From NCBI GenBank assembly GCA_963823065.1, contig CAWGJX010000004.1:192139-256138 (forward strand): a stretch of DNA of 64,000 bases, read 5' to 3'. The translations under genes and the position numbers were made by a program. This DNA is from an uncultured Bacteroidales bacterium (GTDB taxonomy: Bacteria; Bacteroidota; Bacteroidia; Bacteroidales; VadinHA17). The notes beneath the pieces were generated by a model. The model did not search any database. It was not told the DNA's origin and saw only the letters and a program-made list of their open reading frames with translations. Positions 4,205 to 52,545 of the stretch are shown in pieces (position 1 is the first letter of the stretch; each line of letters opens with the position of its first letter).

Positions 4205-4232
4205 ATAATCCTTTTATAAATTGTTCCAGCCT

Positions 4233-7211: not shown

Positions 7212-7216
7212 TCATC

Positions 7217-8704: not shown

Positions 8705-8751
8705 GGTAAATCAATTTCATTAAGATATGTTTAACTAAATAATTAACAATT

Positions 8752-10011: not shown

Positions 10012-10022
10012 AGTTTTAAACA

Positions 10023-10066
10023 AAAAGTAAGGGAGGGTAAAGAAACCCTTCCTTTACTTTTTATTC
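10023..10066 (+). terminator. imperfect hairpin plus T-run between the LamG gene and the first GH144-like gene
   Basis: AAAGTAAGGGAGGGT-AAAGAA-ACCCTTCCTTTACTTT followed by TTATTCTT. It may be a terminator or an attenuator inside the locus. Confidence 0.45.
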
Positions 10067-10079
10067 TTATCTTTTGGGT

Positions 10080-12041: not shown

Positions 12042-12046
12042 TCGCA

Positions 12047-13411
12047 ATGAAAAAACTTTGGTCATTTACTCTGTTATCTCTCATTCTTGTAAGTGTAAAC
12101 TGTTACGCCGGAAGCGGATACAAAAAAACGGGCAAAAACAGTCAGACTGAATTTAAATCGATCTCGGATGATTCACTTCTCACACTGGTTCAATACAGGA
12201 CCTTCAGATACTTTTGGGACGGGGCTGAGCCCAATTCCGGAATGGCCCGAGAACGCTATAATGAAGACGGAATATATCCTGAAAATGATAAGAACGTAGT
12301 AACTTCAGGCGGAAGCGGTTTTGGTCTGATGGCAATACTGGTTGGTATTGAACGAGGATTTATTACAAAGGAAGAAGGAATCGCACGGTTTTCGAAAATT
12401 GTTGAGTTTCTGAAACGAGCTGACAGATTCCATGGTGCTTGGCCACATTGGATCTACGGCGAAACAGGAAAGGTAAAACCGTTCAGCCCTAAGGATGATG
12501 GTGCTGATATAGTTGAGACTGCTTACCTGATGCAGGGATTACTTTCTGTCAGACAATATTATATAAATGGTTCAGAACGAGGAAAGTTGCTTGCCTCAAA
12601 GATAGACAGCTTATGGAGAGGAGTTCAATGGAACTGGTTTACAAAAGGAGGGGAGGATGTCCTATACTGGCACTGGTCTCCTGATTTTGGTTGGGCAATG
12701 AACTTTCCGGTTGAAGGATATAATGAATGTTTAATTTTGTACATCCTGGCTGCATCGTCGCCTACTTACCCCATTAAACCCGAGGTTTACCATAAGGGTT
12801 GGGCCCGTTCAGGAGCCATAACTACACATTCTGGCATGTACGGATACGTTCTTTCACTAAAGCATAATGGAGCTGAGGAATACGGGGGACCACTTTTCTG
12901 GGCGCAATATTCATATCTTGGTCTTGACCCACGGTTCCTGAAAGATGAATATGCAGATTACTGGATTGAGAACAAGAATCAGACTCTCATTAATTGGACA
13001 TGGTGTTCCCTTAATCCTGACCATTTTGCGGGTTATAGTGAAGATTGCTGGGGTCTCACGGCCTCCTATTCTATGAAAGGGTATTTTGCGCACTCTCCGG
13101 GAAGCACTACTGATCTTGGTGTAATTTCTCCTACTGCTGCTATTTCTTCAATGCCTTATACCCCTGATCAATCGATGAATGCCCTGAAATATTTTTATTA
13201 TACTATGGGATCGAAAATATGGGGCGAGTATGGGTTCTATGATGCTTTCAGTGAGCAGAATAGTTGGTATCCTGAGAAATATCTTGCTATTGATCAGGGC
13301 CCTGAAGTGGTTATGATTGAGAATTACAGAACCGGGCTGCTATGGAGTCTGTTCATGTCTGCCCCTGAGGTTAAGAATGGCTTAAATCTCTTAGGTTTTA
13401 CATCAAATTGA
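12047..13411 (+). CDS. secreted GH144-like glycoside hydrolase (paralog of the previous gene, without Ig domains)
   Basis: Same conserved blocks as 10080-12041 (FWDGAEPNSGMARER, GGSGFGLMAILVG, DRFHGAWPHW, GADIVETAYLMQGLL, WGLTAS, AIDQGPEVVMIENYRTGLLW), plus a signal peptide. Confidence 0.65.
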   Translation: MKKLWSFTLLSLILVSVNCYAGSGYKKTGKNSQTEFKSISDDSLLTLVQYRTFRYFWDGAEPNSGMARERYNEDGIYPENDKNVVTSGGSGFGLMAILVGIERGFITKEEGIARFSKIVEFLKRADRFHGAWPHWIYGETGKVKPFSPKDDGADIVETAYLMQGLLSVRQYYINGSERGKLLASKIDSLWRGVQWNWFTKGGEDVLYWHWSPDFGWAMNFPVEGYNECLILYILAASSPTYPIKPEVYHKGWARSGAITTHSGMYGYVLSLKHNGAEEYGGPLFWAQYSYLGLDPRFLKDEYADYWIENKNQTLINWTWCSLNPDHFAGYSEDCWGLTASYSMKGYFAHSPGSTTDLGVISPTAAISSMPYTPDQSMNALKYFYYTMGSKIWGEYGFYDAFSEQNSWYPEKYLAIDQGPEVVMIENYRTGLLWSLFMSAPEVKNGLNLLGFTSN

Positions 13412-14279: not shown

Positions 14280-14301
14280 AAAATCGTCACGGGTGTTTCA
14301 C

Positions 14302-15414
14302 ATGAGAAAGAATTGGAGAGATGTGTTGATTTTTTCTGCAATTGCAGTTTCAATTCCGTTAATATTCCTTTTATTAATTCGATTTACCCCTAAACCACCG
14401 GTACGTAAGGTGGAAAATGCCAGGATAATTCTATCTAAAGCAGGAACAAGTAAAGCAGATACTTATTCTAAAAAACTTTTTGCCGAGGCAAGGATCTATT
14501 ATGATTCGGCAATGATTAGCTGGAAGAAAGAAAATAAAAGATTTATTTATTTCAGGAATTATGATAAGGTCCTCAGGTTTGCTGAACTATCAGCAAAAAA
14601 AGCCGGTATGGCTAATGATAGTTCTATAAGCAGTGAATCGGACCTTAAAATAAGACTAAGGCAAAAAATTGACACACTTAATGATTTGGTGACGCAAATT
14701 GATGCCCTTTTCGAAACTTATCCCCTGACTTCGGAGGTACGTAACCGGATCTCAAAAGGAAAAATATTACTGGAAGAAGGAAAGATTATTTTTACTAAAG
14801 GTCAGTTCGTCCAGGCAAGCAGGAAGATTAATGATTCAGAATATCTGCTTACCGGTTCATACGAAAACGCATCGGAAAATCTTAAAAATTATTTTAAATC
14901 ATTTCCTGTTTGGACCAAATGGGTTAATTTGACATTAAATGATTCTAAAAAAAATAATGATTTCTCAATAATTATTGATAAATTTTCACGTAAATTTTTT
15001 ATTTACCGCAATGGTGCCCAGAAATACGTGTTTGAGGCTGAATTAGGTAAGAACTGGGTTGGAAATAAGAGAGTCAGGGGTGATAATGCAACTCCTGAAG
15101 GAATGTACAAGATTACTAAAAAGTTCGACAGCAATAAAACAAAGTACTATAAAGCTCTTTTAATTGATTATCCCAATGATGAGGATTTGCGAAAATTCAA
15201 AGCTGAGGTGTCAAAAGGATCACTTCCTAACACTGCAAAAATAGGTGGTCTGATAGAGATTCATGGCAACGGAGGGAAAGGAATTGACTGGACCGAGGGA
15301 TGTATTGCTCTTACTGATTCTGAAATGGATATTGTATTTAAGATTGTAAAAGTTGGTACACCTGTTACAATTGTAGGATCAATGGTTAATTTGAAGGAAA
15401 TAGTGAATAAGTAA
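14302..15414 (+). CDS. membrane-anchored L,D-transpeptidase (YkuD domain) with a helical N-terminal region
   Basis: N-terminal TM helix (VLIFSAIAVSIPLIFLLLI). YkuD catalytic motif IEIHGNGGKGIDWTEGCIALTDSEMDIVF near the C-terminus. The track ORF opens at a GTG at 14293; the ATG at 14302 is more likely. Confidence 0.8.
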   Translation: MRKNWRDVLIFSAIAVSIPLIFLLLIRFTPKPPVRKVENARIILSKAGTSKADTYSKKLFAEARIYYDSAMISWKKENKRFIYFRNYDKVLRFAELSAKKAGMANDSSISSESDLKIRLRQKIDTLNDLVTQIDALFETYPLTSEVRNRISKGKILLEEGKIIFTKGQFVQASRKINDSEYLLTGSYENASENLKNYFKSFPVWTKWVNLTLNDSKKNNDFSIIIDKFSRKFFIYRNGAQKYVFEAELGKNWVGNKRVRGDNATPEGMYKITKKFDSNKTKYYKALLIDYPNDEDLRKFKAEVSKGSLPNTAKIGGLIEIHGNGGKGIDWTEGCIALTDSEMDIVFKIVKVGTPVTIVGSMVNLKEIVNK

Positions 15415-15424
15415 ATTGTCTGAT

Positions 15425-16219
15425 ATGGAAAACGAGAATATAATACCCGGGAGTACTCAACCTAAACCTGAACCTGACTCAATTCTTGCAAATGTTGATG
15501 CAAAAAAAACAGATTCTGCGCCAACACCTGTAGTGAATACCGGTATTGGAAGATTTTTACGGGGGGTCGCAATATTCTTTGGCACTGTTATATTTATACT
15601 GGCCATGGCGTTCTTTATCGTATATCTTGTTCCTGTTCTCAACGAAATTCTGCCGGGTAAAAAGTCTGAAATTGTTAAAAATACGGAACTAAAGAATTCT
15701 GCTGATTATAAGAAACAGTTGAGCATGCTCAATAAGGATATCCAGCGTTTTACTTTGAAATCTAATGGATATACCTCGGGGCAGTCATATATTGTTGTAA
15801 ATACTACGGAAAACAGGTTTTATCTTTATACAAACAAGAAGCTTATCAGAGAAGGTTTCTGCAGTACAGGAAGTTTAATGATGCTCAAAACTGATAAAGG
15901 GAAAGTCTGGGTATTTAAAACACCAAGGGGAAAACGGACGATTCAGGGGAAAATAGCTAATCCTTCATGGAAAAGGCCCGACTGGTCATTTATTGAAGAA
16001 GGTTCACCTGTTCCACCGAAGGATGACCCATCGCGATGGGAATCAGGTGTGTTGGGCGATTATGCACTTGGTATCGGCGACGGATACCTCATACACGGGA
16101 CAATCTATAAACGTTTTCTTGGAATGCCCGTAACGCACGGTTGCGTAAGGCTTAATGATGCTGATCTGAAAGTAATATTCAATACCCTGAATGTCGGATC
16201 GAAAGTTTATATTTTCTGA
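15425..16219 (+). CDS. membrane-anchored L,D-transpeptidase (YkuD domain)
   Basis: TM helix (VAIFFGTVIFILAMAFFIVYLV) and YkuD motif YLIHGTIYKRFLGMPVTHGCVRLNDADLKVIF. The track ORF opens at a TTG at 15416; an ATG is at 15425. Confidence 0.8.
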   Translation: MENENIIPGSTQPKPEPDSILANVDAKKTDSAPTPVVNTGIGRFLRGVAIFFGTVIFILAMAFFIVYLVPVLNEILPGKKSEIVKNTELKNSADYKKQLSMLNKDIQRFTLKSNGYTSGQSYIVVNTTENRFYLYTNKKLIREGFCSTGSLMMLKTDKGKVWVFKTPRGKRTIQGKIANPSWKRPDWSFIEEGSPVPPKDDPSRWESGVLGDYALGIGDGYLIHGTIYKRFLGMPVTHGCVRLNDADLKVIFNTLNVGSKVYIF

Positions 16220-22849: not shown

Positions 22850-23875
22850 ATGAATATGGTTAGGAAAAGTATCTGCGGATTGACTTCTGATGAAATATAT
22901 GAATTTATAAGATCAGATGGATTCACTGCCGGGCATGCGATAACACTCGCACATAACGTTTATAAAAAACACAGATCAGATATATCATTGTTTGAAAAAA
23001 TTCCGAAAACGCTCAAATTAATGCTTTCTGCTTCTGCAGTGAGTGGAATCTTCGTCCCAAAGAATGAACTGGTTTCCGAAGACAAATCAGTTAAGTATCT
23101 GTTCGTCTCGGAATTGGGGAACATGTTCGAAACTGTTTACATTCCGGAAGGTAGGAGACATACTGTATGTGTTTCAACGCAGTCAGGATGCAGAATGGGG
23201 TGTACATTTTGTGCAACCGGGGAATATGGCTACAAAGGCAATCTTACTCCGGCAGAAATTGTGAATCAAATCATAGCCATTCCACAGTCTGAAAAGATTA
23301 CTCATGTTGTTTTTATGGGCATGGGAGAGCCAATGGATAATCTGGAAAATGTTCTTAGGGCATGTAATATCATTACAGCCGAATGGGGTTTGGCATTGAG
23401 TCCAAGAAATGTAACTGTTTCAACTGTAGGAATTTTGCCCGGAATTGAAAAATTTCTTAAAGCTTCTGACTGTAATATGACTTTAAGTCTTTTTTCTCCA
23501 TTTACTGATGAACGGGTTAAGGGAGTCCCGATAGAAAGGCTATATCCTTTTCAAAAGATATTGGGTCTTATGAAACAATTTAAGGTCAGGAAGGGGAGGA
23601 GATTAACCGTGGCTTATATGATGATACAAAATGTAAATGATACAGATTCGCATCTCAGAGAACTGATATCTCTTGTTAAAGGGTCCTCAATACGGGTAAA
23701 TTTAATACCATATCATCCGCATCCTGGCTTGCCGAACTTATCATCGTCCAGAGAGAGGATGCAGTATTTTAAACATAATCTGGTAATTTCAGGAATATCC
23801 GCTTCAATTCGAAAATCAAGAGGATCAGATATTTCAGCTGCTTGCGGGTTACTGGCAGCAAGGACTATTTATTAA
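22850..23875 (+). CDS. rlmN: radical-SAM 23S rRNA/tRNA adenine-C2 methyltransferase (RlmN family)
   Basis: Radical SAM cluster motif GCRMGCTFCATG, a C-terminal catalytic Cys in DISAACGLL, and a size of 341 aa. Confidence 0.82.
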   Translation: MNMVRKSICGLTSDEIYEFIRSDGFTAGHAITLAHNVYKKHRSDISLFEKIPKTLKLMLSASAVSGIFVPKNELVSEDKSVKYLFVSELGNMFETVYIPEGRRHTVCVSTQSGCRMGCTFCATGEYGYKGNLTPAEIVNQIIAIPQSEKITHVVFMGMGEPMDNLENVLRACNIITAEWGLALSPRNVTVSTVGILPGIEKFLKASDCNMTLSLFSPFTDERVKGVPIERLYPFQKILGLMKQFKVRKGRRLTVAYMMIQNVNDTDSHLRELISLVKGSSIRVNLIPYHPHPGLPNLSSSRERMQYFKHNLVISGISASIRKSRGSDISAACGLLAARTIY

Positions 23876-24383
23876 TCAATTGGAACATAAATTCATCGAG
23901 GTAGCCATCATCTGTTTTGATCCAGTCTTTTTTTGTTCCGCTTTTCACAAATCCTTGCTTCACGAACAGATCAATGCTTTCAGCATTATTTGAAATTATG
24001 TTGCAGAATACCTGGTGCAACTTCAGAATTTCAAAACAATAATTTAAAAGACATGTTAGTGACATCGATGCAAATCCCTTTTTCCTGTAGCATTCGTAGG
24101 CTATGAGTATTCCAATTCCTGCTCTTTTATGAAATGGATCGAATTCAAATACATCGATGGTCCCAATAGTTTTTTTATCATCAATATGGTCAATCATAAG
24201 CCTGAGTTGTCCTGTCTCATAGATATTTTTATTAGAATTTTCAATGTACTGTTTGAGGTTATATCTTGAAAAAGGAGTAATGGTATTGCTTATTGACCAG
24301 AAACTCTGATTGTTTTCCCACTCGTAAAGCAACTCCAGGTCCTCAGGTTCCACCGCCCTGAGTTTGATATTTTTATACTTCAT
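23865..24383 (-). CDS. GNAT-family N-acetyltransferase (RimJ/RimL-like)
   Basis: 172 aa with an acetyl-CoA-binding-type block (RKKGFASMSL...) and typical GNAT length. Its 3' end overlaps the rlmN 3' end by 11 nt (convergent). Confidence 0.75.
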   Translation of the reverse strand: MKYKNIKLRAVEPEDLELLYEWENNQSFWSISNTITPFSRYNLKQYIENSNKNIYETGQLRLMIDHIDDKKTIGTIDVFEFDPFHKRAGIGILIAYECYRKKGFASMSLTCLLNYCFEILKLHQVFCNIISNNAESIDLFVKQGFVKSGTKKDWIKTDDGYLDEFMFQLINK

Positions 24384-24391
24384 GGTCTCTT

Positions 24392-26902
24392 CTATTTGGT
24401 TACCAATTCGTAGAGATTTCTGATATATGCATCATCATATCCTGTTTTGTGGACTATTAAAAGTGCATTTTTAGCATCTGAAAGAGAGGTATATTCGCCA
24501 TAGTAATATTTATAATATCCATCGTTGGCTTTTATCTCAGAAACTCCTTGAAGTCCGCTGAATATTTTCCCGGCATTTATAGGATTTCTTGTAGCTCCAA
24601 GCTGAATAGTATATTTCTTGTGATCCAGATGACTTAAAAATGAGTTTTTTCCACCGGGGTTTAATATTGCGTTTGATTCATTTTCCAGGTCATACTGGTT
24701 CAATATATAGGCATTTTTGAATCCATTATCCCGGGCATATCCAAGATATTTCAAAGCGTCTGTCTTATTGTAGAATACTCCCAGAACGTACATTGAGATT
24801 GTATCGGATTTAATCGTCCTGATAAAGAATAGTTTATCATTTGTTAATGAAGAAAAGTAATCGGGTGTCAGTTTCCTGGCTGATTTTAGTAAAACAATAC
24901 TGTATCTAAGTGAAAATGGTTGTCGGAGTTGCTCCGGTGTGTAGGTTTCCTGCCGGATTATAATACCGGTTTTATGATCGACAATTCCAAATGTAACACG
25001 CCGGTTATACTTTCTCCCTTCCGGATTATCTGAACCATCAGGATTTGAGTTTAGAGCAACATAATCAGCTTTTCCGTATGATTTTTTAATAAACATTCTG
25101 ATTGATGCTCCATTCTGCGTTAGGTAATCTATTACAGCCTGAGCTCTCTTATCAGCGAGCATTTCATTATATTCTTTGGTACCTTTTCCATCGGTATATC
25201 CTGCAACCTCCACTTTTAATTCAGGATAATTGGTGAGGACAGATCTTAACCTTTCAAGAACTGATAGAGCCTGATCGTTCAGTTTAAAACTATTAAAGTC
25301 AAAAAGGACATTGTTTAATGACAGAAACTCGCCGTCAAATACTTTATCTGGTACAAGAGAGGAGCTGACAAAAACATAGTTACCTCCGAAATTTACCGGG
25401 ATACTCAGATTAATTGAATCTGTCTTATACCCGGTATGACTTATATAAAGCTGATATTCACCCGGTTTAATATCAAAAGAGTAATTAGCTGAATCGAGTA
25501 GATCTATTTTTTTTGTTTCTTTTTGGTCAACAAGCAGTATTTTTGTCTGTTTGGGATCTGCTGTTATTCCATCCTGAAGTTCAATATCTCCTTTTAATTT
25601 TATAACTCTTTCTACTGGTATTTCAGTAGTAAGCGTATATATATTCCGTGTACGTGATTTTTCGTCAAAAAGGCTGGTTATATAGCTATTTTTTTGATCA
25701 CTCTGGATAAAGAAGTTGTTGCTAACAGTATTATTTAATGGATAAGGCAATCCCACGGGATTAGACCATGTTCCATTCTTCTTCTGAGAACTGAATACAT
25801 CGTAACCTCCCATGCTGATATGACCCATTGAACTGAATAGCATAGTTCCCTTATCCTGATCGAAGAAAGGAGTATCTTCATTATAAGGAGTATTAATGAC
25901 ATTCCCGCAATTGACTGGTTCAGACCATTTCCCAGCATCATTTTTTTCAGAAAACCATATGTCAAGCTCACCGTAACCGCCAGGCCTGTTGCTTGAAAAG
26001 TATATAGATTTACCATCAGGGGTAATAAAGCCAGAGGACTGCCAGTAAATGGAATTAACAGGTTTTGGGAAACTTTTGATCCTGGTCCAGGTGGAATCTT
26101 TCCTCTGTGAATAATATAGATTTCCGTTTCCCCCTTCTTCGAGATAAATGACCAAAAACTTTCCATCACCTGTAATCGAGTTCGAATAAAATTTATCAGC
26201 TCCTCCAAGTTGTCTGGAGATATCAACAGGCTTTTTCCATGTTCCTGTATTGTAAGAGCAGAAAATGTGAGTTTTGCCGTTTTCTTTCCGGGTAAAAATA
26301 AATACAGAATCATTTTTTGAAAGTACCGGATTGCATGCTCCGGGATAATCACTTAGCCATCCTGTAAATAATTGTGAGAATAACCTTATAGGTTTTTTCT
26401 CCATATCAATCGCATACTTACAATCTTTTATCTGATTGTCAATGTATTCGTCCTTGAAGATTTTTGTGCCGCTTAAACGTTTTCTGGCGGCAGAGTAGAG
26501 CGTGATTGCTTTTTGGAGACTATCACTCTGATGATATGCAGTTGCAAGGTACAGATAAGTATCAATCGGCGCCTTTTCGCCATATTCAATATATTCCTTG
26601 TCAGTGCCGGCTACATTCAAAATCGCTTTTGAAAGAAGTTTCAGTGCTTCGTAGTTTCTTCCATCGAGATTCAAATAGCATATTCCAAGTTTAGCTGCAA
26701 GGTTAGAGTTCTCGGGATAAATCTTATAGAGCGCTTCATACAGACTGGCAGCTTTTTCGTAATTCTGATCGTAATAGTAATAAATATCAGCTTCCTGAAC
26801 GGCATTAATGAATCCTCTTTTGGAAAGTGTTTGAGAGAAAGAAGACAGGTACAAGAAAATCAACAGGGATAGAATAACTGTCCTCCTGAGCGCAGTTTTC
26901 AT
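24392..26902 (-). CDS. PorE-like envelope protein: signal peptide, TPR, PD40/TolB-like beta-propeller, CRD-like domain, OmpA_C peptidoglycan-binding domain, two SPOR-like domains
   Basis: OmpA_C motif VEVAGYTDGKGTKEYNEMLADKRAQAVIDYL...NRRVTF lies at about nt 24977-25324. PD40 blades include YFSSNRPGGYGELDIWFS and GHISMGGYDVFSS. The SPOR-like segments lie at about nt 24698-24910 and 24407-24616. Confidence 0.7.
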   Translation of the reverse strand: MKTALRRTVILSLLIFLYLSSFSQTLSKRGFINAVQEADIYYYYDQNYEKAASLYEALYKIYPENSNLAAKLGICYLNLDGRNYEALKLLSKAILNVAGTDKEYIEYGEKAPIDTYLYLATAYHQSDSLQKAITLYSAARKRLSGTKIFKDEYIDNQIKDCKYAIDMEKKPIRLFSQLFTGWLSDYPGACNPVLSKNDSVFIFTRKENGKTHIFCSYNTGTWKKPVDISRQLGGADKFYSNSITGDGKFLVIYLEEGGNGNLYYSQRKDSTWTRIKSFPKPVNSIYWQSSGFITPDGKSIYFSSNRPGGYGELDIWFSEKNDAGKWSEPVNCGNVINTPYNEDTPFFDQDKGTMLFSSMGHISMGGYDVFSSQKKNGTWSNPVGLPYPLNNTVSNNFFIQSDQKNSYITSLFDEKSRTRNIYTLTTEIPVERVIKLKGDIELQDGITADPKQTKILLVDQKETKKIDLLDSANYSFDIKPGEYQLYISHTGYKTDSINLSIPVNFGGNYVFVSSSLVPDKVFDGEFLSLNNVLFDFNSFKLNDQALSVLERLRSVLTNYPELKVEVAGYTDGKGTKEYNEMLADKRAQAVIDYLTQNGASIRMFIKKSYGKADYVALNSNPDGSDNPEGRKYNRRVTFGIVDHKTGIIIRQETYTPEQLRQPFSLRYSIVLLKSARKLTPDYFSSLTNDKLFFIRTIKSDTISMYVLGVFYNKTDALKYLGYARDNGFKNAYILNQYDLENESNAILNPGGKNSFLSHLDHKKYTIQLGATRNPINAGKIFSGLQGVSEIKANDGYYKYYYGEYTSLSDAKNALLIVHKTGYDDAYIRNLYELVTK

Positions 26903-28854
26903 TATTTTGAGACTTTCTTGATAAAGATTTCTTCAGGATACCCTTTCCTTATCAACTCGAGTCTTAATGAATAAGCTTCATCCCGTGTCGCAAATCTACC
27001 TGTGGTGTACCTGTAGAACTTATCGAGATCATTATACAGGACTTTCATATCGGTGATATATTTAAAATACGTTACATCAACAGGACGATGGAGAGCCATA
27101 ACCTGTACTGTATAATAAAGTACATCAGAATCTTTTATATTAACGTCACTTACATCGCTTACATTGAGGTTTCTGATCAGAGTACTGGTATCTGCTTCTG
27201 CAATGGTAGGGATTAACGAAAGATTTATTTTATCATAAACAACAGGGTGGCTGGTAATCCTCTTTATGGTTGTATCTCTTTCAAGTGACACATCTATATT
27301 TATCGAGAGGTTAGGGCTATCCTGCAAAATGGCGGTATCAATTATCTGAGTTTTATAGCCATACCCTTTATAATAGATTCTGAATTGCCCCGGCGCAACA
27401 ATAAAATTATAAAGGCCTGTATATTTATTCGGGAATCCTACATCGAGAGTATCTCCTGATGTTTTATTTAAAAGATCAATGGAGTAATTTTTATCAAACG
27501 TTACTGTTGTATCTCTAAGACTGAATCTGCCTTTTATTTCAAAGGACTGGTTTACGTCAGTATTTCCCATCCCGAGATAAAATATTTCTTTCTGTTTATA
27601 ATCAGTTGGCATCGAATAATAGGCATTCTTTCCATTATTTACTGGTTGAAAGAATTTGTCATCGTCAGTTGTATTAATGGGATACCCTAAATTTGTTGGC
27701 GTTTTCCAGCCTGATCCTATCTTCTGACTCTTAAAATTATCAAATCCGCCCATTGAGCTATGTCCCTCAGAAGAAAAATAAAGCACTGAATCATTCTGGG
27801 TTATGAAAGGTGTATCTTCATTAAATGGAGTATTGATAGCTGAGCCAAGGTTTACAGCAGGACCCCAATCGCCATTTTCATCTTTTTCAGAAACATAAAT
27901 GTCGAGGTTTCCCTGACCACCGTCTCTGTTGCTGGAAAAATATAGTTTCTTCGAATCGGCAGAAATAGAGGCATGCGATTCATAAAATTTCGTATTTATG
28001 TTCTTATTTAATTTTTTAATTGGCGTCCAGGCGCCATCAACGAAATTCGAGGAATATATTGCTCCATCGTAGTTATCAGTTTTGTACAGGAAGAGCTCTG
28101 TTCCATCAAAGTTAAGCGAACAGGATGAACAATCGTCACCCGCATTTAATTGAGCGGTTATTTCAATTGGAGTCTGCCATTTGCCTCTTTCTTTCTTTGA
28201 AAAGAAAAGTGCATTAACTGCTCCTCTGCGTTCGGTATATACAATTGTGTTGCCATCGAAGCTAACAGCAGGATTCTCATTTATTGAGCCCTGGTTGAAT
28301 TCACTTCCCATTGGTTTTTTACTGAACGTTACAGGATTCTTTTCATAATCAATTGCGTTCTTGCATGCCTGAATCTGTTGTTCAATGTAATCAAGATTCT
28401 TCATGCCTCCCCTGGAAGATGTTTCTCTGGCAAGCTTATTAAAAGTCTGAAGAGTGCTTAGAGCTTTATATAGTTGATTATTAATAAGATATGCCTTGGA
28501 TAGAGAGAAGTATGAATCAAGTGGGGCCCTCTTTTCCTTGAAAGATTCGGGTTTTGACTCGTAAGATGCTGATTTAACAGCTCTCTCGAGATATGGAATT
28601 GATTTTTCTTTCTCTCCGGGAATATTAAGATAACAATTGCCTATTTTATATTGAATGTTTCCATTGCCGGTGGTATCCATTATAAGATATAATTGATTTG
28701 CCAGATCATATTCTTCATAAAGATAATATGACTCGGCTTTCTCAAATATTTTCTTCATCTCACCTGAAGACTGGGCAGAAACCGTGATTGGAATTATTAC
28801 CAAAGCTGTCAGCTGCAGTAAGCCCCTTACGATTTTTACTCTGAAGTTATCCAT
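26902..28854 (-). CDS. PorE-like paralog: signal peptide, TPR, PD40 beta-propeller, CRD-like domain, C-terminal SPOR-like domain
   Basis: Shares its N-terminal plan with its three neighbours. The last ~70 aa (YTVQVMALHRP...GRFATRDEAYSLRLELIRKGYPEEIFIKK) look SPOR-like. Its stop shares one base with the next gene's ATG (TAATG). Confidence 0.6.
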   Translation of the reverse strand: MDNFRVKIVRGLLQLTALVIIPITVSAQSSGEMKKIFEKAESYYLYEEYDLANQLYLIMDTTGNGNIQYKIGNCYLNIPGEKEKSIPYLERAVKSASYESKPESFKEKRAPLDSYFSLSKAYLINNQLYKALSTLQTFNKLARETSSRGGMKNLDYIEQQIQACKNAIDYEKNPVTFSKKPMGSEFNQGSINENPAVSFDGNTIVYTERRGAVNALFFSKKERGKWQTPIEITAQLNAGDDCSSCSLNFDGTELFLYKTDNYDGAIYSSNFVDGAWTPIKKLNKNINTKFYESHASISADSKKLYFSSNRDGGQGNLDIYVSEKDENGDWGPAVNLGSAINTPFNEDTPFITQNDSVLYFSSEGHSSMGGFDNFKSQKIGSGWKTPTNLGYPINTTDDDKFFQPVNNGKNAYYSMPTDYKQKEIFYLGMGNTDVNQSFEIKGRFSLRDTTVTFDKNYSIDLLNKTSGDTLDVGFPNKYTGLYNFIVAPGQFRIYYKGYGYKTQIIDTAILQDSPNLSINIDVSLERDTTIKRITSHPVVYDKINLSLIPTIAEADTSTLIRNLNVSDVSDVNIKDSDVLYYTVQVMALHRPVDVTYFKYITDMKVLYNDLDKFYRYTTGRFATRDEAYSLRLELIRKGYPEEIFIKKVSK

Positions 28855-28859
28855 TAAAA

Positions 28860-28867
28860 CAAATATA
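28860..28867 (-). promoter_or_regulatory. candidate -7 box (TATATTTG on the minus strand) 5 nt upstream of the ATG at 28854
   Basis: Plus-strand CAAATATA is an exact reverse-complement match to TAnnTTTG. Confidence 0.35.
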
Positions 28868-28904
28868 GCATTATTTAAAAGGGATTTTGCAAACGGGTCG
28901 ATTT

Positions 28905-30179
28905 TTATTTAAATGTTATTTTATAGATGTCTTCCTTACCATATCCGCCTGTTTCTTTATATCTTGAATAATAGCCCGATTTACCGTCACCTATAGGCAT
29001 AAAGAATACGTCATCATCGGGTGTATTGATAGGATATCCAAGATTTTTTGGATTACTCCATAGACCATTCGATTGGAGATCAGATCTGAATATGTCATAA
29101 CCTCCTATCGTTTCATGTCCCTGGGAACTGAAAAAAATGGTTTTTCCATTATTAATCAGAAATGGTCTGTCCTCATTGAATTGTGTATTAATTTCCGGGC
29201 CAAGATTGACTGGTGGACCCCAGTCGCCATTTACTTTTTGGGAAATGTACAGATCAAGTCCGCCGAAGCCTCCTGGTCTGTCCGATGCGAAAATCAGCTG
29301 ATTCCCGTCTTCTGAAATAAATCCGTGTGATTCCCAGTATTTTGTATTAATGTTTTTGTTTAGTTTGACAATTTTTGTCCAGGTCTCTCCGACAAGAGAG
29401 CTCACATATATATCGCTGTTATCGTTATCATCTTTGGAAAGAAATAGTAATTTCCCATCGGCAGAAAGACATGAGATATAAAAATCTCCATCGGTTTGGA
29501 GGTCAGGTGTGATATTAACAGGAGCTGACCATTTCCCATTTATAAGTTTGGAAAACATAACAGCATCATAGAATTTGAGAGAAACCATATAAGCAAAAGA
29601 CTTGCCATCTGCTGATATCAGAGGATTAAACTGAGACTTTTCATCATTAAACTGTTCTCCAATGTTTTCTTCAGTAAAAGATACCGGCTTAGCTATAAAA
29701 TCTTTAGCCTTATCGCATACTTCAATTTCATGTTTTACGAACTCCACATTCTCATGATCGTCAGGCAGAAGTGTAGCAAGATATTTAGTGAAAGCCTCTT
29801 TTGCCTGATCGAACTTGAAATTAACGCGATAAGCTTTCCCAAGCTGAAATAATGCATCATATGGAGCTGCTACCTGGTTAATGCTTCCTTCTTTGCGCTT
29901 GGCTGACATATTCTTTGATGCAATACTGAGATAATCTACAGATAGATTCTTTTTTGAAGGAATATTAAGATAGCACACTCCTATGCGGTATGCAAGGTTC
30001 GCATTGGAAGGCAATTTCTCATATAAAGGCAGATAATATGTGAGAGCATCAGAATAATCTCCGTTCATCATGAAATATTCAGCTTCAAGGAATGCATCCT
30101 GAAGCTCTTTATTTCCCTGAGCACGTAGCGGAATGATGAAAATAAATATACTAAACAGACACATTACTCTTTTGCGCAT
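28905..30179 (-). CDS. PorE-like paralog, minimal form: signal peptide, TPR, PD40 beta-propeller only
   Basis: 424 aa. Same conserved blocks (GVCYLNIP, AAPYDALFQLGKAYR, IFASDRPGGFGGLDLYIS, GHETIGGYDIFRS). Ends directly after the propeller. Confidence 0.6.
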   Translation of the reverse strand: MRKRVMCLFSIFIFIIPLRAQGNKELQDAFLEAEYFMMNGDYSDALTYYLPLYEKLPSNANLAYRIGVCYLNIPSKKNLSVDYLSIASKNMSAKRKEGSINQVAAPYDALFQLGKAYRVNFKFDQAKEAFTKYLATLLPDDHENVEFVKHEIEVCDKAKDFIAKPVSFTEENIGEQFNDEKSQFNPLISADGKSFAYMVSLKFYDAVMFSKLINGKWSAPVNITPDLQTDGDFYISCLSADGKLLFLSKDDNDNSDIYVSSLVGETWTKIVKLNKNINTKYWESHGFISEDGNQLIFASDRPGGFGGLDLYISQKVNGDWGPPVNLGPEINTQFNEDRPFLINNGKTIFFSSQGHETIGGYDIFRSDLQSNGLWSNPKNLGYPINTPDDDVFFMPIGDGKSGYYSRYKETGGYGKEDIYKITFK

Positions 30180-30198
30180 AGACAGAGATTTTGTTAGT

Positions 30199-30206
30199 CA
30201 AATTTA
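30199..30206 (-). promoter_or_regulatory. candidate -7 box (TAAATTTG on the minus strand) 19 nt upstream of the ATG at 30179
   Basis: Plus-strand CAAATTTA is an exact reverse-complement match to TAnnTTTG. Confidence 0.3.
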
Positions 30207-30246
30207 TTAAAAAATCGGCAATAGAATGTTAAACCTGTAATATTTT

Positions 30247-30280
30247 ATGAAAATGACCGGCGAGGACCAGTCATTTTCAT
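30247..30280 (-). terminator. 11-bp hairpin just downstream of the first PorE-like gene (terminator or attenuator)
   Basis: ATGAAAATGAC ... GTCATTTTCAT with a 12-nt loop. The downstream sequence on the minus strand is A/T-rich but has no clean T-run. Confidence 0.35.
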
Positions 30281-30284
30281 TCAT

Positions 30285-33137
30285 TTATTTTTTGTTTTTG
30301 TTTTTTCTTCTCCAAAGAATAAGGAATAAACTAAATATTCCGAGAAGTATCAGCAGCCATAATATCCACAACCCATTTTTATTTCCGGATGACACTATTG
30401 ATTTAGAATTTTCAGGTGAAATGTTTTTTGAAAGTATCAGGTTGGCTATACTTCCAAAAACAAATTCCTGTGGATACTTTTCTTTATTAGTAATAAGATA
30501 TTTTATAAGGTTCTCTGGCGTTTTGATTTTTTCTTTCTTCAGTTCAATAGATTTCAGTACTGAAATGAATTGTTCATCTGATTGTCCGATCAAATCATTG
30601 AGATATTGGTCCATTTTAGTATCAGGCAATGAGCTCAGTCTTACAAGCAACTCTACAAGCTGAGCCTGTGAGAGCCCCTGCCTGAGAGATTCATTATAAA
30701 ATGATTGCAGCCATTTCCAGGTTGTTTTAGAGTTGCTGTTATCGGCAGAAGTCACAGCCCCTTTGACGAGCAATCCTATTGAAGAGTTTTCAGTGAATGA
30801 CAGAATCTTAGATCTCAAAATATCTATATTCGGGTCAATCCCGTTCAGGATGGCTGCGGCAATCCTGTTCAGGTCGCGTGGACTTATCCTTCCACCGGTT
30901 TTTTCTGAAATATATTGCTGCAGATCAGTCCATGTCTTCAAATTGGACGTATGTATATCAAGGCCAGAGAGAAGCTTTTGCAGTTCGCCATCTGAATATT
31001 TTGCAAGTAAATCGACTGCAGCCTGGGTAAGAATATTATCAAATACAGCTACCGTAAGTGCCAGCCTGTCAATGTCTTCTGGGTTTATGCCTTTTTTAAC
31101 AGCTTCTTCCTTAAGTAATGAAATATAGTCGTCGATTTTTCCGAATTCCTTTTGTTTTATATTAGCATTCGTGATAAGATCAAGAAGTTTGTCCCCGGCG
31201 CGGCTTTTAAGCATCTCGACAAAGATGGAGATCTGTTTCTGAGAAATAATTCTGTTGTATTCAGGTCTCTTAACCGGTTGATTTGTAATGTTTCTTTCAC
31301 GGGTAATCAGAACTTCGGTCTGGGTTTGGTTATTGTATCTGTCGGCAAGTTTAAACACAACCCTGTTTTTACCGTTAGCGGGTGCCATTTTATAATTAAA
31401 AACTGAATCGCGCACAGTAAAATGCTGCACAGATACTAATGAATCACCAACCCAGTTCTCGACAGTAAGGATCGATTTCGGTTCAATTTTCATTGGAATG
31501 ACAATTGAGTCGCCTCCGCTGACAGATATGCTTTTATTTGATTCCACGTTTAAATCAGCCTCAAAATCTGTTCTTGGTATAATTGTTCCGGGAAGTATCA
31601 AGCTGTCGGAGGGATTTAGCAGAGGAAGATTTAAATTTTTGATAACTGTTTGACCTCCATCTCCCTGATATGTAATTTGATAATCCCCCTGTGGAAGCTG
31701 GAATTCGTACTGACCGGTCTGAGGATTCGAATATACAATCATCGTCTGATCAGGATTCTTTATATTCATAGCGCTGATCTTAACGCTGTCATTCATGTTA
31801 TTTATCAAATCGGCAACCTTTACCATCCCTCTGACAAAGAATTTTCTGGGATGATCATTTGAAAAGATTTCGACACGGTATATATCCTGTTTCCCAAACC
31901 CTCCCGGAAGTTCTTTCGAAATATAACCTTCATAGCCTTGATTCAAAGGTCTGAAGAATACATCATCATCAGTAGTATTTAAAGGGAAACCTACATTCAG
32001 GGGTACTGACCATTCTCCGTTATCAAGTAATGTTGAGTAAAAAATATCATACCCACCCATGTTAAAGTGACCCCTTGAACTGAAAAACAGTGTTTTGTCA
32101 TCCTGACTCAAAAATGGAGATTCTTCATTATAAGGTGTGTTTATCTTCGGTCCAAGATTAACTGCCGGACCCCAATCCCCGATACTGTCGCGGGTAGATA
32201 CATATATATCCAGTCCGCCATATGTACCTTTCCTGTTACTGGTGAAATAAAGCTTTTTGTTATCGTGAGAAATAGTTGCATGTGATTCCCAGTATTTGGT
32301 ATTTATTTTATCATTCAGCTTTACGATAGGAGACCATTTCCCATTCACAAGCCGTGAGGTATAAATTATCCCATCATAATCAGCTGAACTGTATAAATAA
32401 AGATCCTTACCGTCCTTCGAGATTGAAGTAGGAAAAAGATCACGGTCTACTTTTAAGAGCTCATTCATATTCTGAGGATCCGTCCATACACCATTGACTT
32501 TAGTTGAAAAAAGAATAGCATCATAAAAAGCCTGGCTCCTTGAAAAAACAATCATATCCTCTTTATCAGATACCACAGGATTGTAATCATTATTACTACT
32601 GTTTATTACATTCCCGAGGTTCTTCTCTTTGAGATAGAGAGGCATCCTCATAAGCTCCTGGGCATTCCGGCAACTCTGTATCTGGAGATTCACAACTGTC
32701 GTATCATATACCGCAGGGTTCATATTTAATTTGAAAAGTTCATATGTTTTTAGTGCTTTATCTATCTGATTATTGATGCGGTATGCATTTGCAAGATAGT
32801 ACAGAGCATCATACGGAGCACCTGTTTCATTAAATCTGCCTTCTTTATATTTCGGATCAATATCTGCAACAGCGTCCTCAAGATAACTGATGGCTTTAAA
32901 TTTCTCACCCGGTATATTGATATAACATTGACCTGTCCTGTATTTGTAATTTGAATTTTCAGGGTATTTTTTCAGTAGTTGCAGATATAATGGCAGGGCA
33001 TCCTGATACGACTCAAATAAGATCCAACTCTCAGCTTCGAAAAAATTTTGCCTGCTCTCTTCCTTAGATTGTGAGCGTAACTCAGGATTGATAAATGTAG
33101 CCAGCAGCCACATTATGATAACTAATCTTTTCATCAT
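30285..33137 (-). CDS. PorE-like paralog, long form: signal peptide, TPR, PD40 beta-propeller, CRD-like and Ig-like segments, ~280-aa helical repeat region, C-terminal TM anchor
   Basis: 950 aa. Blocks GQCYINIPGEK, GAPYDALYYLANAYR, YFTSNRKGTYGGLDIYVS and GHFNMGGYDIFYS. The C-terminal sequence is GLWILWLLILLGIFSLFLILW followed by RRKNKNKK. Confidence 0.6.
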   Translation of the reverse strand: MMKRLVIIMWLLATFINPELRSQSKEESRQNFFEAESWILFESYQDALPLYLQLLKKYPENSNYKYRTGQCYINIPGEKFKAISYLEDAVADIDPKYKEGRFNETGAPYDALYYLANAYRINNQIDKALKTYELFKLNMNPAVYDTTVVNLQIQSCRNAQELMRMPLYLKEKNLGNVINSSNNDYNPVVSDKEDMIVFSRSQAFYDAILFSTKVNGVWTDPQNMNELLKVDRDLFPTSISKDGKDLYLYSSADYDGIIYTSRLVNGKWSPIVKLNDKINTKYWESHATISHDNKKLYFTSNRKGTYGGLDIYVSTRDSIGDWGPAVNLGPKINTPYNEESPFLSQDDKTLFFSSRGHFNMGGYDIFYSTLLDNGEWSVPLNVGFPLNTTDDDVFFRPLNQGYEGYISKELPGGFGKQDIYRVEIFSNDHPRKFFVRGMVKVADLINNMNDSVKISAMNIKNPDQTMIVYSNPQTGQYEFQLPQGDYQITYQGDGGQTVIKNLNLPLLNPSDSLILPGTIIPRTDFEADLNVESNKSISVSGGDSIVIPMKIEPKSILTVENWVGDSLVSVQHFTVRDSVFNYKMAPANGKNRVVFKLADRYNNQTQTEVLITRERNITNQPVKRPEYNRIISQKQISIFVEMLKSRAGDKLLDLITNANIKQKEFGKIDDYISLLKEEAVKKGINPEDIDRLALTVAVFDNILTQAAVDLLAKYSDGELQKLLSGLDIHTSNLKTWTDLQQYISEKTGGRISPRDLNRIAAAILNGIDPNIDILRSKILSFTENSSIGLLVKGAVTSADNSNSKTTWKWLQSFYNESLRQGLSQAQLVELLVRLSSLPDTKMDQYLNDLIGQSDEQFISVLKSIELKKEKIKTPENLIKYLITNKEKYPQEFVFGSIANLILSKNISPENSKSIVSSGNKNGLWILWLLILLGIFSLFLILWRRKNKNKK

Positions 33138-33275
33138 AATACAATTAATCTAAATGGAATTAGGGCACATAAATCATATGTGAAAATTAAGATCCTTAGG
33201 TTCTATTTTTAGAATGGAGGAAGTCAAACTGTTATTTCTCTACTCAAGGCTACTAATATAGGATAAATATTAGAA

Positions 33276-33302
33276 AAAAGGACTATTTGAAGTAGTCCTT
33301 TT
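33276..33302. terminator. bidirectional-type hairpin downstream of the E2 gene
   Basis: 10-bp stem AAAAGGACTA / TAGTCCTTTT with a 7-nt loop. An A-run lies before it and a T-run after it, so a T-run follows on either strand. Confidence 0.6.
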
Positions 33303-33372
33303 TACCTTTTTTTTTCAAACAGCGATTATTCGCTGATGAAATTCATAACAAATATACCTTCTTAACTTTTAA

Positions 33373-43684: not shown

Positions 43685-44653
43685 TTGTTACGGAGCCGGA
43701 AATACATTCTCGACTTATCTGATCTGCAATATAAGCAAGTCAGGCTGCCATGGAAAAAGAAGCTGCTACAGTTTCTATTATGGTTCGCCGGATCACTTGC
43801 TCTTGCATTCATGTACGGATCATTTATCAGCAATATTTTCGGATCACCAAAAGAAAGAATGCTCACTCAGCAAATAGAAAATCTCAAACTTCAATATACA
43901 CTTATTGGCAGGGAACTTGATAATTCCCTCGAGTCTCTGAATAGTTTCAGACTCTCTGATGACAAACGCTACAGACCGATTCTTCATATGGAGACTGTTC
44001 CTGAAACTTACAGGAAAGCAGGATTTGGAGGGGTCGACAGGTATAGTGATCTCGCTGGATATCGGAACTCGGATTTGCTCATTGAATATAAAAGCAAAAT
44101 AGATGAGATAAAAAGCATGTCTACAGTGCAGAAAGAGTCCTTTAAAACATTATCTGAACGAAGTTTAGAATGGCGGAGAGAAATAGATCATTTCCCGGGT
44201 ATTAGTCCGGTAAATATTAAGTTCAGACTTGGCGACGGATATAAGTGGCGTCCAATTCATCCTGTTTTAGGAACGGCACGAATGCATAATGGTCAGGATT
44301 TTGAGGTTCCATACGGTACTGAAGTATATGCTACGGGTGATGGTACAATCGTGGAATCAGGATGGAATTCAGGAGGTTTTGGAAATTGCATTGTAATAGA
44401 TCACGGTTATGGTTTTCAAACTGTCTATGGTCATCTCAGCGACATTAAAGTGACCAGAGGACAGAATGTAAAGCGTGGTGATCTGATAGGAATAAGCGGA
44501 AGCACAGGCTTATCTTCAGGCCCTCATCTTCATTACCAGGTTGAGGAGTTTGGAAAACATGAGAACCCGGTCAATTTTTTTAATAATGATGTGAGTGCCG
44601 ATGAATACAATGATATGATTCAGGCTTTTGCATCAAGAGCAAAATTAAGATAA
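43685..44653 (+). CDS. M23-family (LytM-domain) metallopeptidase with an N-terminal TM anchor and coiled coil
   Basis: HNGQDF...HLHYQV LytM motifs. A TTG start is inferred because the N-terminus aligns with the paralog at 44741 and a stop lies 27 nt upstream in frame. Confidence 0.85.
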   Translation: MLRSRKYILDLSDLQYKQVRLPWKKKLLQFLLWFAGSLALAFMYGSFISNIFGSPKERMLTQQIENLKLQYTLIGRELDNSLESLNSFRLSDDKRYRPILHMETVPETYRKAGFGGVDRYSDLAGYRNSDLLIEYKSKIDEIKSMSTVQKESFKTLSERSLEWRREIDHFPGISPVNIKFRLGDGYKWRPIHPVLGTARMHNGQDFEVPYGTEVYATGDGTIVESGWNSGGFGNCIVIDHGYGFQTVYGHLSDIKVTRGQNVKRGDLIGISGSTGLSSGPHLHYQVEEFGKHENPVNFFNNDVSADEYNDMIQAFASRAKLR

Positions 44654-52491: not shown

Positions 52492-52504
52492 TCTACGATC
52501 TTTA

Positions 52505-52512
52505 CAAATATA
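52505..52512 (-). promoter_or_regulatory. candidate -7 box (TATATTTG on the minus strand) between porU and porV
   Basis: Plus-strand CAAATATA is an exact reverse-complement match, 13 nt upstream of the ATG at 52491. Confidence 0.3.
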
Positions 52513-52545
52513 AAACTATTTTTCATCCTTAATATTGTGTGTATA

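Follow-up and report, generated by a model that had tools for sequence, protein, structure and literature searches.

Why does a member of the Bacteroidales carry four copies of one periplasmic scaffold in a row, each ending in a different C-terminus, and does this array serve type IX secretion (T9SS) or the cohesion of the cell envelope? Bacteroidota seem to be devoid of tol-pal, no such locus having been detected in Bacteroidetes (PMC12204202), and the way in which their outer membrane is tethered and constricted at division is an open question. The real job of PorE, the best-known protein with this scaffold, is disputed between a T9SS anchor and a general tether of the outer membrane to the cell wall. 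The window analyzed here is a 64,000-nucleotide stretch of DNA from an uncultured Bacteroidales bacterium, and the relatives with which it was compared are MAGs. The array consists of the following ORFs.

30285-33137, minus strand: g1, an ORF of 950 amino acids (PD40 E 7.7e-17; AF2 model with pLDDT 76)
28905-30179, minus strand: g2, 424 amino acids; signal peptide, TPR and propeller, with nothing after the propeller
26902-28854, minus strand: g3, 650 amino acids; scaffold, a CRD-like domain (aa ~431-560) and one SPOR-like domain (aa ~571-650) (PD40 E 8.5e-18)
24392-26902, minus strand: g4, 836 amino acids; scaffold, a CRD-like domain, OmpA_C and two SPOR-like domains

The four ORFs lie exactly where the initial annotation had placed them, and their C-termini are graded as it had described. 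They have in common a scaffold of ~420-425 aa made of a signal peptide, a TPR block and a PD40 propeller. Alignment of this scaffold over ~420 aa gave 83 invariant columns, which include every motif previously quoted for the shared N-terminal plan. PD40 was detected by Pfam in all four paralogs (E 1e-13 to 1e-18). The TPR models matched weakly in g1, g2 and g4, and Pfam's own TPR cut-off was reached only by TPR_14 (g2, g4) and TPR_19 (g4), by none in g1. No Pfam TPR match was obtained with g3, yet its TPR block aligns with those of the other paralogs. Signal peptides and topology were assigned by inspection of the sequence only: the signal peptides of g1 to g4 end with a small residue followed by Gln at the predicted cleavage site, and no Cys indicative of a lipobox occurs at any of these sites. 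The CRD-like segments of g1, g3 and g4 stayed below the Pfam threshold (CarboxypepD_reg E 0.018 in g1), but HHalign found them homologous to one another with a probability of 98-99.8%, the value for g1 against the middle segments of g3 and g4 being 98.4-98.5%. A T9SS C-terminal sorting domain was rejected for every paralog because no such NCBIfam model matched g1-g4.

Pairs of paralogs share 32-44% protein identity and 46-52% nucleotide identity, and are thus far from near-identical, near-identity being one of the refuting conditions set by the initial annotation. At third codon positions the identity is ~34%. This saturation indicates that the duplication which gave g1-g4 is old, and a recent, meaningless duplication was rejected for the same reason. 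Judged from their sequences, the four proteins are anciently diverged paralogs of a periplasmic scaffold of the PorE/CHU_0125 type, in which a CpoB-like TPR is fused to a TolB-like propeller.

The largest paralog, g1, has more than 120 full-length homologues in a protein search. After its signal peptide it is built of the following parts.

32649-33071, minus strand: TPR block, aa ~23-163 (AF2 helices at 18-163, weak Pfam TPR, invariant columns)
31860-32639, minus strand: PD40/TolB-like beta-propeller, aa ~167-426 (Pfam, AF2, Foldseek)
31305-31844, minus strand: CRD-like beta-sandwich (aa 432-520) and a second, Ig-like beta-sandwich (aa 545-611) (AF2 strands)
30429-31241, minus strand: helical spacer of four four-helix modules (repeat HMM; AF2 model of aa 621-950, pLDDT 86.8)
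30288-30371, minus strand: TM helix (aa 923-947) and basic tail RRKNKNKK (hydropathy; AF2 helix 923-947)

Two Cys of the TPR block (C71 and C156) are invariant across the four paralogs. The best specific Foldseek matches of the AF2 model were TolB structures (prob 1.0, TM-score (target) 0.35-0.42), a match at the level of the fold only; the TolB HMM matched g2 with an E of 5.5e-8, far below the cut-off of the model. The four-helix modules occupy aa 633-700, 705-764, 770-835 and 842-903. Three of them are detectable as a sequence repeat of ~58 aa, and orthologues of g1 carry 0, 1, 3 or 10 detectable copies. Searching the PDB with the helical region by Foldseek gave no significant fold match (best E 0.4), and a sequence search of the PDB with g1 gave nothing useful. 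At the C-terminus, a LWxLW..GAG motif is conserved, and the TM helix and the basic tail are kept in all complete orthologues. We predict that g1 is a periplasmic subunit anchored in the inner membrane, and that g2, which ends with the propeller, is a soluble periplasmic one.

The anchors of g3 and g4 are of another kind.

26905-27174, minus strand: C-terminal SPOR-like domain of g3 (top Pfam match; HHalign)
24968-25327, minus strand: OmpA_C peptidoglycan-binding domain of g4, aa ~526-645 (Pfam OmpA at residues 533-623, E 7.9e-15)
24395-24952, minus strand: SPOR-like domain 1 (aa ~651-750) and SPOR domain 2 (aa ~755-836) of g4 (HHalign; Pfam)

SPOR is a septal module which binds denuded glycan and is found in FtsN, DamX, DedD and RlpA. 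SPOR domain 2 of g4 (residues 761-827) passed Pfam with an E of 1.7e-7, scoring 31.9 bits as part of full-length g4 and 35.2 bits when isolated (threshold 21), while the preceding domain 1 was visible only by profile-profile comparison (99.0% to the g4 SPOR profile in HHalign). The C-terminus of g3 scored 16.6 bits against SPOR (PF05036), for a gathering threshold of 21 bits. However, SPOR was the top Pfam match in all seven g3 C-termini (that of the window and six orthologues), one of which was above threshold, and the g3 C-terminal profile matched the g4 SPOR profile with an HHalign probability of 99.9%, against 0.6% for the negative control. Of the domains initially assigned, PD40 in g1-g4, OmpA in g4 and the second SPOR of g4 were thus recovered by Pfam, whereas CRD and the g3 SPOR fell below threshold and TPR was weak, or missing in g3. 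The array shares SPOR with FtsN, DamX, DedD and RlpA through the last domain of g4, to which the SPOR-like C-terminus of g3 is homologous. Unlike in these proteins, SPOR is joined here to a large scaffold of TPR and propeller, and in g4 also to OmpA_C; no mention of a SPOR-scaffold fusion was found in the literature searched.

Is g4 PorE? The order TPR, beta-propeller, CRD, OmpA_C of Porphyromonas gingivalis PorE (PG1058/PGN_1296) is found in g4 only, with a CRD that is sub-threshold in Pfam. The g4 OmpA_C matched the PorE domain 6TOP with an E of 4e-14, compared with 1e-9 to 1e-10 for Pal and OmpA, and 6TOP was the closest among the Bacteroidota chains matched. In this alignment D571 and N579 of g4 fall on D576 and N584, the peptidoglycan-binding residues of PorE (PMC12773672); R586 lies within a LSx2RAx2V motif. 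All four paralogs matched the NCBIfam PorE model (NF052230) across the scaffold, but with 158.6 (g4), 142.5 (g2), 123.7 (g1) and 116.8 bits (g3) they remained below its cut-off of 600 bits. The best-scoring NCBIfam model for each of them was CHU_0125 (NF053607), with 178.8 (g4), 177.5 (g1), 148.9 (g2) and 121.7 bits (g3), also below its cut-off of 620 bits. Ten PorE-sized relatives behaved alike: none exceeded either cut-off, and they reached ~210-240 bits with the PorE model or gave no match at E 1e-60, which suggests that this model is narrow. The 87-aa PorE fragment of 6TOP matched only fragments of at most 153 aa in the protein database. PorE is moreover a lipoprotein tethered to the outer membrane, whereas g1-g4 bear no lipoprotein signal; the two SPOR domains of g4 are additional, OmpA_C is absent from g1-g3, and neither que genes nor a T9SS neighbourhood surround the array. 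The score of 158.6 against 600 bits, the higher score with the CHU_0125 model, the missing lipobox, the two additional SPOR domains and the absence of g4 from 23 of 65 complete arrays leave the earlier view of g4 as a PorE orthologue unsupported in that form. By sequence, g4 is assigned to the PorE/CHU_0125 superfamily. CHU_0125, an outer-membrane integrity protein of Cytophaga hutchinsonii with TPR, PD40 and OmpA_C, has the same scaffold and OmpA_C as g4 but carries no SPOR domain itself, and the paper on CHU_0125 does not describe partners that are TM-anchored or OmpA-less. [quoted passage not shown]

The conservation of the array was evaluated with g1 orthologues from a scan of genome contigs, one locus per genome. 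Synteny of the block g1-g2-g3(-g4)-GNAT, flanks included, extends to 80 species-level MAGs of the Bacteroidales with a g1 identity of 51-94%, so that absence from relatives, another refuting condition of the initial annotation, does not apply. Complete MAG chromosomes with the array include OY970346.1, OW818650.1 and OY759745.1, besides the 4.99-Mb contig of L001. The paralog classes are distinct across loci (58-62% identity within a class versus 32-43% between classes). Even a g4 homologue as distant as 40% identity is surrounded by the same array; at 34% identity, a four-paralog array with GNAT still occurs, but among other neighbouring genes. The full set of four genes is not obligatory, since g4 is missing in 23 of the 65 complete arrays and two arrays consist of g1-g2 only. 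In five distant arrays (L054, L055, L068, L079, L082) the anchors are shuffled, and OmpA-SPOR homologues also exist as singletons. A natural fusion (P0354) unites three complete scaffolds, OmpA and SPOR in one chain, its scaffolds 2 and 3 being devoid of signal peptides. Of the 150 nearest clusters at 50% identity, roughly half combine OmpA with SPOR.

Three further elements of the block were located.

33275-33303, no strand: bidirectional terminator-like hairpin between the upstream E2 acyltransferase gene and g1
30250-30277, minus strand: 15-bp hairpin, 8 nt past the g1 stop (-20.4 kcal/mol, z -6.6)
23865-24383, minus strand: GNAT (Acetyltransf_3-type) acetyltransferase with no signal peptide, starting 8 nt after the g4 stop

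GNAT is a constant member of the block, its fifth gene: its start lies within 32 nt of the stop of the last paralog in 58 of 65 loci, and it is present also in L083-L085. The 58 nt that follow the g1 stop fold with -12 kcal/mol or better at 27 of 74 loci, the region after the g2 stop at one of 73; the core ATGACCGG..CCGGTCAT was seen in most of the 14 loci inspected. This hairpin appears terminator- or attenuator-like. A -7-like motif, TAAATTTG, is located 27 nt upstream of g2, where such a motif was found in 55 of 73 loci, and TATATTTG, a Bacteroidetes -7 motif, 13 nt upstream of g3. A scan for sigma-70 promoters was uninformative (31 matches for 36 expected). With a conserved hairpin behind g1 and -7 motifs in front of both g2 and g3, the block probably comprises more than one transcription unit, and "operon-like", as the series had been called, does not describe it well. 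The start of g4 does overlap the stop of g3 (TAATG at 26900-26904), as reported before. The genes porV, porU, a PorP-family gene and gldJ were likewise found again, at 51298-58627, the PorP-family gene occupying 56050-57039. These T9SS genes are the nearest to the array and lie 18-25 kb off with housekeeping genes between, and across the 80 loci none of the conserved neighbours (E2 acyltransferase, GNAT, RlmN) is related to the T9SS.

From this anatomy, homology and conservation we infer a topology, ligands, a co-assembly and a physiological role. With a probability of roughly 45%, g1-g4 together constitute an envelope-tethering, septum-biased set, the Bacteroidales counterpart of the Tol-Pal job; such a role fits the array at least as well as the proposed link to type IX secretion. 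The four proteins would be exported via their Sec signal peptides and each parked at a different layer of the envelope. The C-terminal TM helix would hold g1 in the inner membrane with its basic tail in the cytoplasm, and its scaffold would be projected outward on the two beta-sandwiches and on a spacer whose number of modules varies between species. While g2 would be free in the periplasm, g3 would bind denuded glycan strands by its one SPOR domain, and g4 would contact peptidoglycan stem peptides via OmpA_C and denuded glycan via its two SPOR domains. The set could thereby link the inner membrane, the cell wall and, by the TPR/propeller faces, partners of the outer membrane. A bias to division septa is suggested by SPOR, and a joint working of the paralogs by the g3/g4 overlap and by the P0354 fusion.

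The Tol-Pal-like role is supported by the TolB fold match, the CHU_0125 deletion phenotype, the failure to detect tol-pal loci in Bacteroidetes, and the frequency of OmpA with SPOR in the clusters. PorE has itself been read as a CpoB-TolB-Pal fusion, a compact Tol-Pal analogue that "potentially undergoes septal trafficking" (PMC12204202). Like the Tol-Pal proteins of Proteobacteria (TolA, TolB, Pal, CpoB), the array has a TolB-like propeller, a CpoB-like TPR, a Pal-like OmpA_C and septum-targeting modules, and g1 loosely recalls TolA domain II by its inner-membrane anchor and long helical periplasmic region. However, the helical modules of g1 are unrelated to TolA, the lipobox of Pal is absent from the array proteins, and Tol-Pal consists of separate single genes whereas the domains of the array are fused and multiplied. 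Septal targeting would also differ, SPOR being used in place of the energized capture of Pal. Several data count against the tethering role. Neither the block with its conserved flanks nor the window (most ORFs of at least 150 aa scanned) yielded a motor gene of the TolQ/TolR/ExbBD type, and g1 is anchored C-terminally, TolA N-terminally. The pg1058 mutant of P. gingivalis has no envelope-integrity defect (PMC5053529). The array varies in content, OmpA-SPOR homologues exist alone, and the hairpin and -7 motifs point to separate transcription. A stronger version, in which the block is a multi-subunit replacement of Tol-Pal, an inner membrane-septal wall-outer membrane bridge recruited by SPOR, with g1 as a periplasmic ruler set by the number (0-10) of its modules, which would be of a kind not described before, is quite unlikely.

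We considered whether the four proteins could instead be a periplasm-spanning scaffold dedicated to the T9SS, in which g4 would be the PorE that fixes PorP and the PorK/N ring to the cell wall, g1-g3 providing the link to the inner membrane. The genome does carry porU, porV, gldJ and a PorP-family gene. With PorE, g4 shares the domain order and the peptidoglycan-binding residues; of the Bacteroidota chains matched, 6TOP is also the one closest to its OmpA_C. In P. gingivalis, PorE binds PorP, a contact in which its WD40 domain is implicated, and secretion needs its TPR, WD40 and OmpA_C domains (PMC9143113, PMC12773672). This explanation is nevertheless rather unlikely given the low score of g4 with the PorE model and its higher one with CHU_0125, the lack of a lipobox in all four paralogs, the 23 of 65 arrays without g4 and the distance of the T9SS genes; furthermore, a different function is considered probable for the non-lipoprotein PorE homologues of gliding bacteria (PMC12773672). 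Functional independence of the paralogs, each TPR/propeller face having its own partner or process and the tandem order being historical, would agree with the likely separate promoters and the terminator-like hairpin within the block, the variable gene content, the shuffled anchors of the distant arrays, the singletons, and the 2-13 PG1058 homologues per species in some Bacteroidetes (PMC5053529). We regard it as unlikely, since the g1-g2-g3 order is strictly kept across 80 species, g3 and g4 are translationally coupled, multi-scaffold fusion proteins exist and GNAT follows the last paralog closely. Finally, it is very improbable that the hydrophobic helix and basic tail of g1 are a cleaved sorting signal (exosortase-, rhombosortase- or sortase-like) and that g1 is attached elsewhere. 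The conserved motif, the TM helix and the Arg/Lys cluster at the extreme C-terminus resemble the layout of known sorting signals, and two homologues are labelled 'LPXTG-motif cell wall-anchored protein' by JGI, but the tail matches no NCBIfam or Pfam sorting-signal model, the block contains no sortase-like gene, and the positive-inside rule suffices to explain the tail.

The novelty suggested initially appears justified for the gene series itself and not for its principle: multi-copy PorE homologues and a CpoB-TolB-Pal-like tether are already published (PMC5053529, PMC12773672, PMC12204202). What this array adds is a set of paralogs that lack OmpA and have other anchors, a gene order that stays fixed, fusions with SPOR, and an inner-membrane subunit of variable length. 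In this block a PorE-type scaffold has been multiplied and given other predicted anchors, one in the inner membrane and one on septal glycan, or none at all; one subunit bears a length-variable spacer, and OmpA_C-SPOR fusions are common in the family. The array gives concrete predictions on localization and co-assembly. Earlier surveys, which demanded all four PorE domains, overlooked the OmpA-less paralogs, and the members of the clusters bear no other name than 'OmpA family protein [Bacteroidales bacterium]'.

Four tandem paralogs, g1 to g4, lie on the minus strand exactly where the initial annotation had placed them:

30285-33137, minus strand: g1, ORF of 950 aa
28905-30179, minus strand: g2, ORF of 424 aa
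26902-28854, minus strand: g3, ORF of 650 aa
24392-26902, minus strand: g4, ORF of 836 aa

The TAATG overlap described between g3 and g4 was found, and the scaffold motifs quoted in that annotation all belong to the 83 invariant columns of the g1-g4 alignment (first ~425 residues). The proposed identity comparison gave 32-44% between scaffolds in protein and 46-52% in nucleotides, with third codon positions ~34% identical, that is, saturated. These values indicate that the duplication is old. PD40 repeats were detected in all four proteins (Pfam, E 1e-13 to 1e-18). TPR models matched g1, g2 and g4 weakly, Pfam's own cut-off being reached only by TPR_14 (g2, g4) and TPR_19 (g4); no TPR model reached it in g1, and g3 gave no TPR match in Pfam. 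On inspection, the N-termini resemble Sec signal peptides ending in a small residue followed by Gln, with neither a lipobox nor a Cys at the predicted cleavage site in any of them. Two cysteines of the TPR block (C71 and C156 in g1, with equivalents in g2-g4) are invariant in the four paralogs and in 72 g1 homologues; they may form a periplasmic disulfide.

In the AlphaFold2 model of g1 (mean pLDDT 76, from an alignment of 72 sequences), TPR helices run as far as residue 163 and are followed by propeller strands (167-426), beta-sandwiches at 432-520 and at 545-611, four four-helix modules (633-903) and a TM helix (923-947). Foldseek grouped the propeller with TolB structures (probability 1.0). 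The helical region (window 30429-31241, minus strand) had no PDB fold match in Foldseek (best E 0.4), despite a pLDDT of ~87 (86.8 for residues 621-950 modelled separately). Its unit is a ~58-aa repeat with a ~70-aa period, and the number detected in g1 orthologues is 0, 1, 3 or 10, with protein lengths of ~700, ~840, ~950 and ~1480 aa respectively; this variation can be seen at loci L040, L045 and L082. All complete g1 orthologues end in the TM helix and basic tail.

In g4, Pfam detected OmpA at 533-623 (7.9e-15) and SPOR at 761-827 (1.7e-7), and HHalign matched the first SPOR-like repeat to the g4 SPOR profile with 99.0% probability. The g3 C-terminus scored below the SPOR threshold (16.6 against 21 bits); SPOR was nevertheless the top Pfam match in seven of seven g3 C-termini (the window's and six orthologues), and their profile matched that of the g4 SPOR domain with 99.9% probability, the HHalign negative control giving 0.6%. 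The CRD-like segments are below the Pfam threshold and mutually homologous (98.4-99.8%, HHalign). Overall, the anatomy of g1-g4 is secure. The best PDB sequence match of the g4 OmpA_C domain (residues 528-638), outranking PorE, was residues 752-862 of 7f4v chain aB (E 3.8e-17; 872 residues, deposited as photosystem I PsaB), which has the insert PDGSDNPxGRxxNRRV in common with g4.

Conservation across Bacteroidota, as the initial annotation had proposed to examine, was surveyed in one genome per GTDB species, using fragments of the window proteins for locus annotation. This yielded 80 loci, all in Bacteroidales-type MAGs, and the order g1-g2-g3 is retained wherever the contig reaches far enough, with SSF transporter, RecR and E2 acyltransferase genes upstream and GNAT and RlmN genes downstream. 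More than 120 full-length g1 homologues are 65-94% identical, the nearest locus being that of Bacteroidales bacterium fen_974 (94%). Among the 65 loci with a visible downstream boundary, 37 contain g1-g2-g3-g4, 23 g1-g2-g3, two g1-g2 and three other arrangements. Scaffold identity is 58-62% inside a paralog class and 32-43% across classes, with g4 monophyletic and branching as the outgroup of g1-g3. At L083 and L084, where the g4 homologue is just 40% identical, the array is still in place; L085, in another neighbourhood, has four paralogs (34% identity) and GNAT, and L086 a singleton homologue. Anchors are shuffled in more distant loci: L054 and L055 carry OmpA_C on the second and third genes, and L068 has six consecutive paralogs. 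The GNAT gene (Acetyltransf_3-type, cytoplasmic; window 23865-24383, minus strand) ends the array whichever paralog is last, starting at most 32 nt from its stop in 58 of 65 loci, and is also found in another genomic neighbourhood. It is loosely reminiscent of the acyl-CoA thioesterase YbgC of proteobacterial tol-pal operons.

An exhaustive HMMER search with g4 gave 4353 clusters (50% identity) at E <=1e-30. Architectures were tallied for the best 150 of these: scaffold-CRD-OmpA-SPORx2 accounts for 32 and a triple-SPOR form for 20, another 36 resemble PorE and lack SPOR, seven are g1-type and a few have two or three scaffolds per chain. Protein P0354 (1685 aa; 11.7-kb contig of Logan ERR13166144) has three complete scaffolds followed by OmpA and SPOR, the second and third scaffolds lacking signal peptides. 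It is a natural fusion of genes that are separate in the window; a 1061-aa paralog (PD40-CRD-OmpA) lies 24 nt upstream.

The following candidate transcription signals were found:

33275-33303, both strands: bidirectional hairpin, ending the upstream E2 gene
30250-30277, minus strand: 15-bp hairpin just 3' of the g1 stop (-20.4 kcal/mol, z -6.6)
~30199-30206, minus strand: Bacteroidetes -7 motif TAAATTTG, beginning 27 nt upstream of the g2 start codon
~28860-28867, minus strand: Bacteroidetes -7 motif TATATTTG, beginning 13 nt upstream of the g3 start codon

The hairpin 3' of g1 is probably a terminator or attenuator parting g1 from g2. Folds at least as stable as -12 kcal/mol are found at this position in 27 of 74 loci, and after the g2 stop in one of 73. 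In most of 14 loci compared, its core ATGACCGG..CCGGTCAT can be recognised, with apparent compensatory changes. Over 9.1 kb the minus strand has only six TAnnTTTG motifs, among them the two -7 motifs listed above; such a motif precedes g2 in 55 of 73 loci, g3 in 45 of 61 and g4 in only one of 39. For g3, the motif would imply an mRNA with a very short leader or none. The motifs suggest g1, g2 and g3-g4-GNAT as the likely transcription units, with read-through possible.

Multiple PorE homologues of unknown role occur in gliding bacteria (PMC12773672, PMC9127263), most of them not lipoproteins (PMC12773672). Heath et al. (2016) counted 424 PG1058 homologues, with some species having 2-13 of them, and noted uncharacterised C-terminal extensions, in a survey that demanded all four domains (PMC5053529). 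All four window proteins match the CHU_0125 and PorE NCBIfam models far under the cut-offs (g4: 178.8 against 620, and 158.6 against 600). None of ten PorE-sized relatives reached either cut-off, which indicates that these models are narrow. NCBI names g4 orthologues 'OmpA family protein'. On the proposal that g4 is a PorE orthologue, the results point both ways: of the Bacteroidota chains matched, PorE 6TOP is the one nearest to its OmpA_C (E 4e-14), which retains the residues aligned with PorE D576 and N584, but the full-length score is low and a lipobox is missing. The porV, porU, PorP-family and gldJ genes, to which the initial annotation had linked the paralogs, do lie in the window (51298-58627). 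The conserved neighbourhood of the array contains no T9SS gene in the 80-locus survey, a third of the arrays do without g4 and no paralog has a lipobox, all of which argues against a dedicated T9SS scaffold, an unlikely reading.

We favour, at a probability of roughly 0.45, a co-operating set that would tether the envelope with a septal bias. In its favour are the SPOR and OmpA_C anchors, the resemblance to TolB and CpoB, the fixed gene order, the multi-scaffold fusion and the disruption of outer-membrane integrity upon CHU_0125 loss (PMC5891637). A published search of Bacteroidetes detected no tol-pal locus; the same study reads PorE as a CpoB-TolB-CP-Pal fusion and proposes it as an outer-membrane-to-peptidoglycan tether with possible septal trafficking (PMC12204202). 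The main counter-arguments to a tethering set are the variable gene content, the apparently split transcription and the failure to find motor genes in the block, its conserved flanks or most window ORFs of 150 aa or more. That the four are simply independent paralogs is likewise unlikely, the same anchors, order and fusion favouring the tethering set. PorE multiplicity and the Tol-Pal analogy are already known; new are the OmpA-less paralogs with their alternative anchors, the conservation of gene order, the fusions to SPOR and the four-helix spacer of variable length. Full-text searches for SPOR together with PorE or OmpA/TolB gave no relevant paper, and SPOR is not mentioned in the two PorE papers checked.

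Elsewhere in the window, positions 4221-13411 (plus strand) are a polysaccharide utilisation locus, in which a SusC/SusD-like pair precedes a Laminin_G/Big_5 protein and two putative members of the glucoamylase family. The plus strand also carries two adjacent YkuD-type L,D-transpeptidase genes (14293-15414 and 15416-16219) and two adjacent M23 peptidase paralogs of 322 and 323 aa with the domain at the same position (43685-44653 and 44741-45712).
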